Shown here: positions 16,840 through 24,615 of the stretch, piece by piece
Layout: every line of letters starts with the position of its first letter
How positions within the stretch are numbered: the first letter of the stretch is position 1
DNA from: a virus
Lineage: Duplodnaviria; Caudoviricetes
Virus record (IMG/VR): IMGVR_UViG_3300045806_000066
Coordinates: 1-62,339 of that record
Strand: one strand, 5' to 3'
DNA: 62,339 nt
Notes under the pieces: model-generated
The model's input: the letters and a program-made list of their open reading frames with translations, nothing else
The model's database searches: none
What the model was told of the DNA's origin: nothing
Translations under genes and position numbers: made by a program

Positions 16840-18603
16840 TTAGTTCACAATTGCGATCAATCCTGTTGGCGGCAAGGGTGCGCCGCTTGGTGTCACGTAC
16901 TGATAGGCTCCCGCGTCCCACCGGGAGGTGCGCGCTACGCTGTTTTTGTCGCTGCACAGCCCAGCGGTCAGGCCGCTGCACAGTCCGTTCAGGTTGGCCC
17001 CCAGGTTATAGGCGCTGCTTCCGGTGGTCTGTATCTGGTATGCGCCGCTCAGCGCCGGGTCAACCGTGCTCGACGCCGCATCATAGCCGTACGTTCCCGT
17101 CCACGTCGAGTAGTTATAGAACGCCGTTCCGTCTCCGCTAGCCATCTGCGGGGAACTCGCCCACACGTTGTTATTCACTCCTGAGGTGGATACGTCCGAT
17201 AGCAGCGTGCCGTAGTCGTGCAGGCCGTACTTGACGCCCTCGATGATGTTGTTCTGAATCTTGGGCTGGCAGGCACCCGAGGTAATCGCCCCGGTGCCGA
17301 GAGTGATGGCCGAGTCATTGGATTTCCCGATGATCGTATTGTTATAGATGGTCGAGCAGGAGTTGCCCGTACCCACCCAGAACACTCCCGGCAGCGGACT
17401 GCCGGTATTCACCAGCAGGTTGTTGTACATGTCGCAAGTGGCGTTTTGTGCGCAGTAAAGGAAAGCCGTGGGCGAGCCGACGCCTAGATCGCCGTAGATG
17501 TAATTGTTGTACATTGAGACGGTGACGGTTGGGCTGCTGGCACCGAAGTTGAAGACGACGATCCCGTCCTGGTGCAGCGTGCCCGTTGGGAATTGCCAGT
17601 TCGTCCAGTTGGTGATCGTATTATTGAAGAACTGTGCCCCGGAAATGGTATCGTTAGAGCTCCCACCCGCGGCAATCCCCCAGTCGATATCGCTGATGTT
17701 GTTGTAGCTGACAGCGATGGCCGAGGCGTCCTGATTGGTGTCGGCGGAGAACAAGACGCCGGTCTTGCACTGCGAGACCGTGTTACCTGTCACCACCGAA
17801 CCCGTCGCGGCCCCGAAGAATGCAATGCAGGCGGTGTTCGCTCCATTGATGTCGGTCGCCCCGCTGCTCGATCCGGCGTTGATGTAGATGTTCTTGATCG
17901 TCAGGTTTTCTACCGTACAGTGGGTACAGTTGTCGCCTTCGACACCATAACTCTGTTGCTCGGTGGAGAGCCCGCTGCCGTTGCCTGAGTTCTGGATGGT
18001 GCCCACGCCCACGCCTAGCCCGTCCACGACGATGTAGCTCAACCCGCTTCCGAGATAGATCGCTCCATGCGTGCCGCTGGCGTATGGACTGGTGATCGTG
18101 AAACCCTCCGTGCAGGCCCGCAGGGTGATCGGGTTGCCGCTAGTTCCGGACTGCGCGAAGGACAGCAGGGAAGCGCCAGCCGCGAGACTGAATGACCCGC
18201 CGATGTAGGTGGTGTCTCCGGGCGCAAATGTGGTCGAGTTGAATGTTGCCGGAGTGATGGCCGTCACGCCTGAGCCATTGCAGGTCTGCGCTCCCGCAGC
18301 GGGGAAAACGTAGCGGTTCGCCGCCAGCACGGGCGCGGTGAGCAAAACAAACAGCAGCAGCGCGGGCAGGGTCATGGCGGCGGCTAGATTGTCGTAGCTG
18401 CGGCGCAGTTTGCGGTGGGAGTTTTTCTCGTGCAGGCAACTTTGCATGATTTCTTCCTGCTCCTTGGGTGTTAGCTGTTGCAACGCCTTTTCGCAGTCCA
18501 GAATCGCGATGATGCCACTCTCCCCCACCCACACCTTCCCAGTGCTGCGGGCTTTCAGATAGCAGTAGCGCATCATCTTCGGCCAAACATCGTAGCGAGT
18601 CAC
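16840..18603 (-). CDS. Right-handed parallel beta-helix protein (pectin-lyase-like/depolymerase) with an internal signal peptide
   Basis: Repeating NNxI turns, HQDGI, and a C-terminal WDAGAYQY...PLPPTGL. MTLPALLLFVLLTAPVLA begins at 18375. GTG at 18603 overlaps the upstream stop. Confidence 0.8.
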   Translation of the reverse strand: MTRYDVWPKMMRYCYLKARSTGKVWVGESGIIAILDCEKALQQLTPKEQEEIMQSCLHEKNSHRKLRRSYDNLAAAMTLPALLLFVLLTAPVLAANRYVFPAAGAQTCNGSGVTAITPATFNSTTFAPGDTTYIGGSFSLAAGASLLSFAQSGTSGNPITLRACTEGFTITSPYASGTHGAIYLGSGLSYIVVDGLGVGVGTIQNSGNGSGLSTEQQSYGVEGDNCTHCTVENLTIKNIYINAGSSSGATDINGANTACIAFFGAATGSVVTGNTVSQCKTGVLFSADTNQDASAIAVSYNNISDIDWGIAAGGSSNDTISGAQFFNNTITNWTNWQFPTGTLHQDGIVVFNFGASSPTVTVSMYNNYIYGDLGVGSPTAFLYCAQNATCDMYNNLLVNTGSPLPGVFWVGTGNSCSTIYNNTIIGKSNDSAITLGTGAITSGACQPKIQNNIIEGVKYGLHDYGTLLSDVSTSGVNNNVWASSPQMASGDGTAFYNYSTWTGTYGYDAASSTVDPALSGAYQIQTTGSSAYNLGANLNGLCSGLTAGLCSDKNSVARTSRWDAGAYQYVTPSGAPLPPTGLIAIVN

Positions 18604-19064
18604 GGCGCCACCTGCAGCAGCGTGACCGCGATCCCGGTGGCCCACGCCGCACAGCCCGCCGGAGAACTGAACCACAGCAAAACCGTTCCCGCTACCGGCG
18701 TGGCCAGAGGCTTGACGACGCCCTGCATCCAGGCGAAGCCGTTGCTTGCTACGCTCGCTTCATACGCCTGCGAGGTATCCACCGTGTCGAGCACGTTACC
18801 GCCGGGGTCTTTCAGAATAACCGTGGCGGGCGAGTTGCAGCCCTGCCACGGCGATTGCGTCTCGATCTGCATGGCCGCCATGGTGACGCCTGCCGGCAAT
18901 ACGATGGTGGCCAGGGAATCGTTGACCGCGCCGCCGCTATCGGTAAAGGGCTCGATCTGCCAGTTGCCGGAGGCGTCGGGAATGGCTGCCGGCATCTGTG
19001 CCCATAGGCAGGATGCCAGCAGCATCGACCCCGCGAGTTGGGCGGCCCGTGTCCAGCGTTTCAT
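18600..19064 (-). CDS. Exported small beta protein
   Basis: Signal peptide MKRWTRAAQLAGSMLLASCLWA-Q and two mature Cys. Confidence 0.65.
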   Translation of the reverse strand: MKRWTRAAQLAGSMLLASCLWAQMPAAIPDASGNWQIEPFTDSGGAVNDSLATIVLPAGVTMAAMQIETQSPWQGCNSPATVILKDPGGNVLDTVDTSQAYEASVASNGFAWMQGVVKPLATPVAGTVLLWFSSPAGCAAWATGIAVTLLQVAP

Positions 19065-19065
19065 T

Positions 19066-23116: not shown

Positions 23117-23145
23117 GTGAATCTCCTTGGGGTGGTGCGGATGAC

Positions 23146-24615
23146 TTAATTGTGGTGCCCGTGACAATCGAAGGTGGCTACTCCGGCAATCGAGGCTGTA
23201 AAAACTACTCCAATAGTCGCTGTCGTGGTCGTTTTGGTATTTACAACCCAGTAGCCGACATATTGCGAACTGCCGGTGAGTCCGCAATCAACGAAATATG
23301 AGGAGTCGATGAACGTACCAGGCCAAGTGATCGTCGCTGAACACGATAGACCGCTTCCGGAGCAACCAGCCGTCGCATACAAATCCACCGGACAGGCCGA
23401 GGTCGCTGTGACGATGCCCTGAGAGTTGATCGCGCTGGGGCACAGGCCCGAGGTCACGCCGCCCTGCTGCGCTAGATCCGCAACTGTGCGAGTGCCCCCA
23501 GAGTCGTCCGATACGGCGAAGGCTGATGTGAAATCGAGGATGGGGCGCTGCTGGCGCGCGGTGCCGTTGGCTTGCACGGTCTGGTAGAAGGCAGATCCGC
23601 CGAGACAGGAGCCCCAAACTGGCGGCGTGGTGGGCCCGGTAGAGAGTAGGCACTGGCTCAGGCTGCCCGCATTGCCCGAGAGCCGGAACAGGCCGGTGAG
23701 ATTCATGTCGCCGCGCACATCGAGTGGGTAGGCCGGAACCGCCGTGCCAATGCCTGCGCGCCCCACACTCAGGAGATTGTAGCCATTGAGCGAGAGTGAG
23801 CCAGTGATGCCCTGCTGGCCGTGGTTGGTGGGGCTGGGGAGGATGGGCGACGGGTAGTAGACGACGCCGTGATACCAGGGCACACCGGCGGACAGGTTGA
23901 CCGTCGATCCCGCTCCCATGAGCTGCCATTGCTGCTGAAACTTAGGAACGGCGTTGCCCGCTGAGTCGGTGAGGCTGACCACGTAACCAGTGCCTACGGG
24001 CCACATCGCATCATTGGCAGTGACCGCGCAAACGGTGGTGTTGGCAGTCGGAACCGCTACACCAGTGACCAGAACCGAAGTCTGCGAGTAGGTGGCATCG
24101 CCCGTCGTGGTGCCCTGGAGCGTCTCTGCGCCCGAGGTGGCTCCGATATAGACGGCCATGCCGGTCGCGCCGCCCTGCAGCCCGGAGGCTGGCGTATTGA
24201 CGTTGAGCGTGCCCGCCATCGTGAGCTGAACCACCTGCTCGGGGGATGGCAGCGTGTACGTCGAGTCGGAGGAGTAGAACGCAAATTGCACGTAATAGGT
24301 GCCAGCCGGGAGCGAGCCGGAGCCATACTGCGCAGTCGCCGTGGTCGTGGTCAGCGGGTCCGCCAGCTCCACCACGGAGCCGTCTGCCGAGGTTGCGCAG
24401 GTCACCGCAGCGGGAATGTTGACGCCGCAGCCAGCGATGTAGCCGGTGTTAGAAGGGGCGAGCGTGATGATGTCGTTGGCCGCGGGAAGCCCGTTGGCCG
24501 ACCGCAGGGTGCCGACAACCGTGACCTGGGACGCCGTGACGCAAGATTCAGCATAGGCCGCCTGGCCACCGAGCGTGAGCAGGACAGCGATCAGCCAGCG
24601 AGCGTAGCGTGTCAC
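23146..24615 (-). CDS. Tail fibre-like protein with a signal peptide
   Basis: MTRYARWLIAVLLTLGGQAAYA-E; fibre motifs GIGTAVPAYPLDVRG, GSLPAGTYYV and a C-terminal ITWPGTF...Y.V tip domain. Confidence 0.7.
   Translation of the reverse strand: MTRYARWLIAVLLTLGGQAAYAESCVTASQVTVVGTLRSANGLPAANDIITLAPSNTGYIAGCGVNIPAAVTCATSADGSVVELADPLTTTTATAQYGSGSLPAGTYYVQFAFYSSDSTYTLPSPEQVVQLTMAGTLNVNTPASGLQGGATGMAVYIGATSGAETLQGTTTGDATYSQTSVLVTGVAVPTANTTVCAVTANDAMWPVGTGYVVSLTDSAGNAVPKFQQQWQLMGAGSTVNLSAGVPWYHGVVYYPSPILPSPTNHGQQGITGSLSLNGYNLLSVGRAGIGTAVPAYPLDVRGDMNLTGLFRLSGNAGSLSQCLLSTGPTTPPVWGSCLGGSAFYQTVQANGTARQQRPILDFTSAFAVSDDSGGTRTVADLAQQGGVTSGLCPSAINSQGIVTATSACPVDLYATAGCSGSGLSCSATITWPGTFIDSSYFVDCGLTGSSQYVGYWVVNTKTTTTATIGVVFTASIAGVATFDCHGHHN

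Follow-up and report, generated by a model that had tools for sequence, protein, structure and literature searches.

Assembly of tailed phages is taught as a purely cytoplasmic process. Podophage tailspikes and fibres carry no signal peptide and fold in the cytoplasm, and P22 gp9 and T7 gp17 share a layout in which an N-terminal particle-binding part is followed by exchangeable distal parts. Exported phage proteins are known, including the coat proteins of filamentous phages, spanins, signal-arrest-release (SAR) endolysins, T5 Llp and lambda Bor and Lom, all of which depend on the host's Sec or lipoprotein pathway; filamentous phages do without a cytoplasmic capsid and are put together at the membrane. 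To our knowledge, this group includes no fibres or spikes of tailed phages, and full-text searches of the literature gave no paper in which signal peptides are described on tailed-phage fibres. Here we describe a block of six consecutive late genes, P1 to P6 (Table 1), in the virus record IMGVR_UViG_3300045806_000066 of IMG/VR (Duplodnaviria; Caudoviricetes), which was analysed over its whole length of 62,339 bp, hereafter the window. Judged by their sequences, P1-P6 behave like podophage fibres and spikes yet appear to fail one feature of that class, leaderless folding in the cytoplasm. Because of what is known of Sec signals, and on comparative evidence, it is very probable that the six proteins are exported, cleaved and folded under oxidising conditions.

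Leaderless podophage tailspikes, such as LKA1 gp49, phi297 gp61, AP22 gp54/gp53 and the Pam1 tailspike, resemble P1 and P2 in joining a conserved N-terminal part to a variable C-terminal part. The tip of the P1 model matches their tips at Z 7.8-9.5, where the aligner gives 7-8 as its chance range, and Gp53-like_C is found in P1 homologues. As in podophage fibres, several paralogues in the genome share one N-terminal domain (P2 and P3), and a trimer is predicted for P2. The P2/P3 domain matched no tailspike particle-binding domain above the chance range, and the textbook leaderless route is departed from, as P1-P6 and nearly all of their homologues carry signals. A bacterial parallel is provided by the MAT fibres of Bdellovibrio bacteriovorus, which, in the parts of the report available, have a signal peptide, a beta-rich conserved domain ~130 amino acids (aa) long, an intertwined trimeric fibre and varied adhesive tips (PMC10769870). 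Some of these tips hold disulfides, and the fibres derive from folds like those of phage tail fibres (PMC10769870, same parts). MAT fibres do not belong to a virus: they are encoded by bacterial genes and displayed on the bacterium's own surface (PMC10769870, same parts). The likeness to P1-P6 is one of described architecture only.

The closest cultured system is Tunturi 1, a Tunturiibacter phage (PP887698) that, according to the part of its description available, is like the window phage in being ~63 kb long and short-tailed, in infecting Terriglobia and in having an SU10-type adaptor (PMC11924767). Five of its proteins have textbook signals, namely gp12 (1190 aa, 20 Cys), gp13 (675 aa, 10 Cys), gp14 (919 aa, 21 Cys), gp16 (149 aa, 2 Cys) and gp17 (1184 aa, 32 Cys). 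Of these, gp14 is annotated as "tail spike protein" and gp17 as "virion structural protein", the latter containing Beta_helix (below cut-off) and chitobiase-C domains. The main text of PMC11924767 contains none of the terms "signal peptide", "mass spectrometry" and "SDS-PAGE", a check that covered the main text only. Tunturi 1 gp30 (26734-28077), annotated as "structural protein", is leaderless and matches SU10_adaptor (E 3.5e-6, 28 bits against a cut-off of 27); it is followed by the leaderless 1307-aa gp31 (28093-32016), giving the same order of adaptor and large protein as in the window. The two phages otherwise differ, with no tblastn similarity except in an HNH gene, and the signal-bearing block of Tunturi 1 lies between head and lysis genes, whereas that of the window lies between the small terminase (terS) and portal-sized genes.

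Each of P1-P6 starts with basic residues, followed by an uncharged hydrophobic core and small residues at positions -3 and -1. The cleavage-type motifs are AYA-E, CFA-Q, THA-Q, GFA-Q, LWA-Q and VLA-A, in gene order; for P2 the scoring rule favours AQS-N. This rule is a crude, home-made one of the von Heijne type, not SignalP, which weighs the charge of the n-region, hydropathy in the best window of 10 residues, the presence of small residues at -3/-1 and the lack of charge in the core, and calls scores of at least 2.5 positive. All six proteins pass (2.74-4.07; P1 3.42, P4 3.43, P5 lowest at 2.74), compared with 0/45 of the other minus-strand proteins when only Met starts are considered (Fisher p 5.6e-8). 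When all ATG, GTG and TTG starts are allowed, two more minus-strand open reading frames (ORFs) pass, at 47995-48921 (from an internal GTG) and 36008-36493 (at offset 81), the former of which resembles a membrane protein; on the plus strand, too, many spurious ORFs pass. Ribosome sites of the AAGGAG type precede P2, P4 and P6, and the P5 start codon lies one base past the P4 stop. Charged residues make up 6-10% of the six mature proteins and 24% of the remaining proteome. Searches of Pfam, PHROGs and NCBIfam with P1-P6 themselves gave no family match.

The original prediction, made from the letters of the DNA, had proposed six adjacent ORFs with signals and these cleavage motifs, and it is borne out, with all six on the minus strand as placed. 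It had also given the beta-helix protein, P6, a leader of 76 aa ahead of its hydrophobic stretch, which turns out to be an upstream extension of the ORF: the ATG at 18447 follows AAGGAGCAGGAAG, a ribosome site, and P6 homologues begin 20-30 residues before the cleavage-type site. P6 is therefore probably a protein of 535 aa with an N-terminal signal whose n-region is long (24 residues), although the public gene call starts at 18576 and gives 578 aa (P0215). The lipobox-like motifs VAGC and LASC that it had pointed out are both present, in P2 and P5, respectively. A lipoprotein (signal peptidase II) reading of P2 was rejected, since the VAGC Cys is kept in only 2/41 aligned relatives; for LASC there are no homologues to compare, P5 being an orphan. 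Its remark that no signal-less fibre occurs elsewhere in the genome agrees with the family scans, where no fibre or spike family was matched in any other tested protein, an absence of matches being weak evidence.

Signals are kept in homologues of P1, of the P2 domain and of P6. In the P1 family, 53/64 homologues are positive at the annotated start. The 11 misses comprise two proteins truncated within the mature part, six extended ones and three with plain signals that the rule overlooked; in each of the six, a hydrophobic stretch with a site of the A-Q type closes the extension all the same. The first 20-30 residues of P1 homologues cannot be aligned but are alike in make-up, and a conserved mature start follows directly. 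Some homologues (P0008, P0011, P0044, P0064) have a CxxC...CxxC zinc-ribbon-like extension before the hydrophobic stretch. Among the best 150 of 280 clusters with the P2 domain, less the query's own cluster, 120/149 representatives are positive at the annotated start and 123/149 when an internal Met is allowed. Those misses that were read row by row are truncated, short-started or extended proteins, or have evident signals overlooked by the rule; in P0151, P0207 and P0212, with extensions of 100-200 residues, a hydrophobic stretch and A-Q site directly precede the P2 domain. No full-length leaderless member was seen among the homologues read in either the P1 or the P2-domain family, and the P6 family, with 73 homologues, has signals nearly throughout. 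It is thus strongly supported, at the level of sequence comparison, that the signal is conserved in kind and not in sequence.

Cysteine content gives a separate line of evidence. Structural disulfides predict that Cys residues are gained and lost in pairs. The mature proteins P1-P6 contain 12, 4, 18, 0, 2 and 12 Cys, in sequence-neighbouring pairs, the same even counts that had been obtained by hand in the earlier reading; the 18 of P3 form nine neighbouring pairs. In the P1-family alignment C73 and C196 are invariant, and two further pairs come and go together: for 25-63, both residues are present in 22 rows and neither in 11, and for 444-484 the numbers are 17 and 16, without a discordant row in either case. 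In the P2 family, C53 and C96 are invariant (41/41 rows). Among 56 aligned rows of the P6 family, pair 332-338 is complete in 50, absent in 6 and discordant in none, pair 207-227 gives 15, 40 and 1, and pair 490-498 gives 5, 51 and 0. Counted after the aligned cleavage column, Cys numbers are even in 32/33 rows of the P1 family (counts of 4-12) and in 37/41 of the P2 family (binomial p 8e-9 and 1e-7, respectively, which are indicative only because the rows are related). With a fixed cut, P6 homologues gave 40 even and 15 odd counts. The paired gain and loss of Cys points to an oxidising folding place, as far as sequences can tell.

P1 has 64 homologues, all on contigs of at most 72 kb, whose first ~400 residues are conserved and last ~100 variable. 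The Pfam family Gp53-like_C ("putative tail fiber protein gp53-like") reaches its cut-off in 4/6 scanned P1 homologues and E<=0.01 in 5/6 (best E 8.7e-13). In the AlphaFold2 (AF2) model of P1, the mean predicted local distance difference test (pLDDT) score is 74, with low values at residues 250-309. Its tip (residues 409-489) aligns with the C-terminus of the LKA1 gp49 tailspike over 80 residues at Z 9.5 and a root-mean-square deviation (rmsd) of 2.5; other matches are the tailspikes of Pam1 (8.3) and phi297 (8.3), the R1 and R2 pyocin fibre tips (8.1 and 7.7), H-type lectins (7.5-8.0) and AP22 gp53 (6.9). The matches to R-type pyocin tips and H-type lectins (6cxb, 6cl6, discoidin I 2w94 and Helix pomatia agglutinin 2ccv) cover the tip domain only, P1 residues ~401-489, with 76-88 aligned residues, an rmsd of 2.6-3.9 and Z 7.5-8.1, near the chance range of 7-8. 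The likeness of the tip was weaker by Foldseek, which gave no PDB match at E<=0.001, and a PDB sequence search with the P1 profile returned nothing meaningful. Matches of the N-terminal domains of P1 are to transthyretin-like and Ig-like folds, those of phage neck and collar proteins among them, with Z values of 6-8.8, a range that the tool calls common. Overall, the P1 model has a lectin-like tip that is similar to those of tailspikes and pyocin fibres.

P2 and P3 are linked by their N-terminal domain, with probes from the two proteins matching the same stretches of related loci. A search with the P2 domain, run without a word index over 1.84 billion representatives, found 280 clusters at E<=0.001; among the best 150 of these the domain invariably occupies the N-terminus, and protein length ranges from 138 to 2143 aa. 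The AF2 model of P2 has a pLDDT of 86.5, and P2 is predicted to be a homotrimer: prediction with three copies gave an interface score (ipSAE) of 0.91, compared with 0.00 for the best of three controls, and the runs agree in at least 94% of contacts, with a partner pLDDT of at least 92. The mark used for this score was reached by 20/30 proteins solved as one-chain pairs and by 1/23 solved as single chains, counts that are only a rough guide for P2, for which a self-made alignment and three copies were used. Multimer modelling had been suggested as a check for trimeric fibre folds, and for P2, to which it was applied, a trimer is what the model returns. The P2 model had no Foldseek match in the PDB or BFVD at E<=0.001. 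The ~770-aa body of P3 has no more than weak leads in the Atlas, to clusters of the phage-tail trimerisation and HylP-like types (scores of 0.84-0.86), and a PDB sequence search with P3 gave nothing meaningful.

The block is also conserved as a unit. The P1 profile identified 42 related loci, 38 on viral contigs and four in metagenome-assembled genomes (MAGs); a single-sequence scan of viral contigs with the portal-sized protein found no relatives, and tblastn against GenBank phages with the capsid-like protein, P1 and P2 found no match. In 39/42 loci, between one and three genes that carry the P2/P3 domain come after P1, the remaining three showing P1 only, and portal-sized and capsid genes come next wherever the locus extends far enough. 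Of the plus-strand ORFs of at least 150 aa in these loci, 131/188 inside the block and 18/182 outside it are signal-positive, some of the latter being large signal-bearing genes just upstream of P1. Five relatives are 97-100% complete, and in these the identity of P1 (41-50%) is like that of the portal-sized (37-48%) and nozzle-sized (42-52%) proteins, homologues of which are present in 5/5. P1, being as conserved as these proteins, can thus be counted as a core gene. The lineage seems to be largely virulent; no PF00589 (tyrosine) integrase was found in the window, serine integrases lying outside that search, and one of the five complete relatives has a PF00589 integrase. The host is probably a member of the Terriglobia (Acidobacteriota), on the basis of MAG names and Atlas taxa only: the MAG bins are named Terracidiphilus, Acidobacteriales, Terriglobales and, in one case, "Proteobacteria", and one P6 homologue is named Terriglobales. 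Directly upstream of P1, and overlapping its start, lies an ORF of 76 aa (24612-24842, minus strand) that is found in the same place in 9/42 related loci; its product may stay in the cytoplasm as a small partner of the exported block or its regulator. In some relatives, the zinc-ribbon-like extension of the P1 gene call stands in its stead.

P4 had no family match in Pfam, PHROGs or NCBIfam and no match in related loci at E<=1e-5. In a set of 5.8 billion proteins, P5 has no match except its own record, and the gene call in that record starts 13 residues later, which removes most of the signal. A spanin pair made up of P4 (small, N-anchored and Ala-rich) and P5 (with its lipobox) was considered and rejected, as P5 is beta-rich by eye, an orphan and 29 kb from the endolysin gene. 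The Atlas neighbours of P6 (0.96-0.98) are Pel9A-like, DUF1565 and Beta_helix clusters, which serve as a lead only; PF13229 occurs in the precomputed annotation of 2/73 P6 homologues, and a PDB sequence search with P6 found nothing meaningful. Signal-bearing P6-like proteins (P0218, P0234, P0239, P0257) lie on contigs of 0.33-1.06 Mb, that is, on bacterial chromosomes, and may reflect either a phage gain from secreted enzymes of the host or prophage copies.

A mechanism that would accommodate these observations starts with export of P1-P6 by the host Sec system and cleavage by signal peptidase I, which would mostly leave an N-terminal Gln; disulfide bonds would then lock the proteins in the periplasm. 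P1, P2, P3 and perhaps P6 would be trimeric fibre or spike proteins that form the host-recognition set of the lineage, with conserved N-terminal parts and exchangeable distal parts. The head, portal, adaptor, nozzle and internal proteins would be made leaderless in the cytoplasm. Exported fibres would come into contact with fibre-less particles only once the compartments had been broken by holin and endolysin, and would dock through their conserved N-terminal domains. The presence of an endolysin gene implies release by lysis. The original prediction of export, oxidative folding and a fibre or spike type gains support in each of these respects from the kept signals, the paired Cys, the P1 tip and the P2 trimer; its further step, the docking of exported fibres on fibre-less particles as holin and endolysin mix the compartments, is favoured only tentatively, at rather less than even confidence. 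It is favoured because P1-P6 include the only fibre-like genes found, are core genes of a largely virulent lineage, lie in the late operon and show the layout of a conserved N-terminal and variable C-terminal part, and because tailspikes and fibres attach to particles spontaneously in vitro. Such attachment is classical for P22 and T4. A broader proposal, quite possible though less likely than not, is that this lineage and, independently, the Tunturi 1 group use two compartments for particle assembly, the entire host-recognition set becoming trimmed, disulfide-locked and trimeric in the periplasm and joining the rest only after the holin opens the inner membrane; infectivity would then rely on the secretion and disulfide machinery of the host.

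Several observations weigh against this reading. The signal calls come from a home-made rule and not from a trained predictor. For P1 homologues, Cys counts taken after a fixed cut at residue 40 were even in 28 and odd in 36 cases, because leader cysteines are included, and only the alignment-anchored count is clean. We know of no tailed phage that adds exported parts to particles made in the cytoplasm, and the topology problem is real. The P1 of the window itself has no Gp53-like_C match in Pfam. For the P2 domain, matches were confined to a generic small beta-barrel over residues 34-115, with a best Z of 6.6, within the chance range, and none was to a known particle-binding domain. P4 and P5 lack fibre features, P5 being an orphan besides, and P6, which has no Beta_helix match by Pfam, may be an ordinary secreted enzyme, to judge from the chromosomal proteins that resemble it. 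Disulfide networks have been described in the leaderless virion of phage Milano, in the parts of the report available (PMC10811340), so paired Cys are in themselves no proof of periplasmic folding. Finally, Tunturi 3, a cultured podophage of Acidobacteria, has leaderless fibres; the host therefore does not impose the trait, and a general rule that all Acidobacteria phages export their fibres was rejected.

It is quite possible, if not the favoured outcome, that P1-P6 are exported and disulfide-bonded but are free proteins and not parts of the particle, with their site of action within the periplasm, at the cell surface or, once the cell has lysed, outside it. The signal and Cys evidence fits this equally well, and no crossing between compartments is needed. 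As free proteins they might be beta-helix enzymes or lectin-tipped trimers that cut or bind host exopolysaccharide or lipopolysaccharide, by which progeny might get out of the matrix without losses to debris, or that block receptors. They would be built like MAT fibres, and the particle would recognise its host by leaderless parts such as domains inserted in the nozzle; MAT fibres share the P2/P3 architecture, in the parts of the source available (PMC10769870), the P2/P3 domain resembles no known particle-binding domain, and P6-like proteins are found in bacterial chromosomes. Against this, P1 is confined to phage-sized contigs, and P1 and the P2/P3 domain are conserved like the portal and nozzle and kept together in nearly all loci, unlike accessory genes. 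A largely virulent lineage with these genes in its late operon would leave little time for remodelling a surface, and the family scans found no other fibre or spike gene in the genome. Moreover, in a host with two membranes Sec alone takes a protein no further than the periplasm, and it is not obvious what a lectin-tipped fibre would bind there.

Docking from the periplasm would be unnecessary, too, if virion fibres came from a pool that never crosses the membrane, export being slow, saturated or shut off late, so that uncleaved or retained protein docks; the hydrophobic N-terminus would then serve to tether the protein to the membrane near assembly sites, or to supply a second, exported pool with a separate role. 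This keeps the textbook route of assembly, and both the zinc-ribbon-like extension of four P1 homologues, which may point to an N-terminal part in the cytoplasm and a form anchored in the membrane, and the unusually long n-region of P6 would suit it. It is nevertheless unlikely: small residues at -3/-1 with a conserved mature start immediately after them argue for cleavage, the even Cys counts and co-varying pairs argue for an oxidised functional form, and a trimeric fibre that kept a hydrophobic helix of 20 residues would be prone to aggregation in the cytoplasm. That the N-termini are no export signals at all, and owe their character to chance, wrong starts or GC-rich composition, is very improbable. 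Such DNA does yield translations rich in Ala, Leu and Val, many spurious plus-strand ORFs pass the rule, which is home-made, and the weak signal of P5 would vanish with the database start. Against this stand the split between six of six and none of 45 in one genome and on one strand, and the keeping of the feature without sequence conservation across several hundred homologues in three families. The chosen starts, moreover, are preceded by Shine-Dalgarno motifs or by stop-start coupling, and the feature recurs in an unrelated cultured phage, Tunturi 1, whose GC content is 55%.

If the host-recognition parts do mature in the periplasm, lysis would be part of morphogenesis, an assembly step in its own right, and host Sec, signal peptidase and disulfide-forming enzymes would be phage dependency factors. 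There would also be a simple explanation for fibre stability in acidic soils. Annotation pipelines in which a signal peptide counts against a structural role would give these receptor-binding proteins a wrong label, and recombinant production of such fibres would need an oxidising compartment for folding. If P1-P6 are instead free exported lectins or enzymes, they would represent a large class of late phage proteins, met in no paper found, whose target is the envelope or matrix of the host and which occupy 12% of this genome. Tunturi 1 on Tunturiibacter psychrotolerans is a cultured system in which the question can be tested. New here are a distinct lineage with a core of P1 and shared-domain genes, the pair-wise Cys statistics, a controlled trimer prediction, and the finding that adaptor and nozzle are leaderless in both the window phage and Tunturi 1.

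Table 1. Coordinates of the six-gene block and of other features of the window.
Feature	Coordinates	Strand	Description
P1, 489 aa	23146..24615	-	Putative signal, residues 1-22 (nt 24550-24615); conserved ~380-aa body; variable ~100-aa C-terminal tip
P2, 233 aa	22415..23116	-	ATG 23116 after AAGGAG; putative signal 1-21; shared N-terminal domain ~22-200; short tail
P3, 972 aa	19484..22402	-	Putative signal 1-25; P2-type N-terminal domain; ~770-aa Gly/Ser/Thr-rich body
P4, 125 aa	19066..19443	-	Putative signal 1-20; Ala/Pro-rich mature part without Cys; AAGGAG upstream
P5, 154 aa	18600..19064	-	Weaker putative signal 1-22 containing lipobox-like LASC; 2 mature Cys
P6, probably 535 aa	16840..18447	-	ATG 18447; putative signal ~1-43 with long n-region; beta-helix-like body; 12 Cys
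Small terminase subunit	25345..25878	-	Pfam Terminase_2, E 1.4e-34; upstream edge of the six-gene block
Portal-sized protein, 854 aa	13516..16080	-	Downstream of the block; portal identity from size, position and conservation only
Candidate major head protein	9803-11101	-	Weak match
SU10-type adaptor	6943..7620	-	Leaderless; Pfam SU10_adaptor, E 8.1e-8, 33.4 bits against a cut-off of 27
Nozzle-sized tail protein, 1128 aa	2964..6350	-	Leaderless by the home-made rule; weak PHROG match to virion structural protein, E 3.6e-4
Endolysin	48756..49274	-	PHROG 90, E 2.5e-48
Large terminase	49598-51364	-	PHROG 2, E 6.1e-15; Pfam Terminase_3 only at E 0.099
3659-aa protein	51310-62289	-	Crosses the end repeat; AAA_34 E 2.1e-86, Helicase_C_4 E 1.3e-73 (strawberry-notch helicase); 2H phosphoesterase

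The window is the whole IMG/VR record, with a completeness rating of 100% and its ends joined by a repeat of 127 bp, and represents an uncultured soil phage, probably one of Acidobacteria. Every long ORF whose third-position GC is high is encoded on the minus strand. The 854-aa portal-sized protein had no family match in Pfam, PHROGs or NCBIfam and no PDB sequence match, and its gene stays adjacent to the capsid gene in relatives; PDB sequence searches with the nozzle-sized and 531-aa proteins likewise gave nothing meaningful. In transcription order the large terminase gene lies ~36 kb downstream of the small terminase gene, adjoining the endolysin gene, and the exported block occupies the usual place of the large terminase. 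Beside the endolysin gene, the 308-aa ORF at 47995-48921 (minus strand) is strongly hydrophobic after its internal GTG and has no family match; it may be of the holin or spanin type. Once the end repeat is closed, the gene for the 531-aa protein (1672-77) ends at the start of that for the 3659-aa protein. A protein with a PAPS-reductase domain (Pfam PF01507, E 1.1e-20) is encoded at 34209-35162 on the minus strand, in the early/middle region. ARAGORN calls two tRNA-Pro genes, at 6430-6507 (minus strand) and 36838-36906 (plus strand), with anticodons agg and cgg, respectively, the first of which overlaps a stretch read earlier as a tRNA-Leu-like RNA with a reduced anticodon arm.

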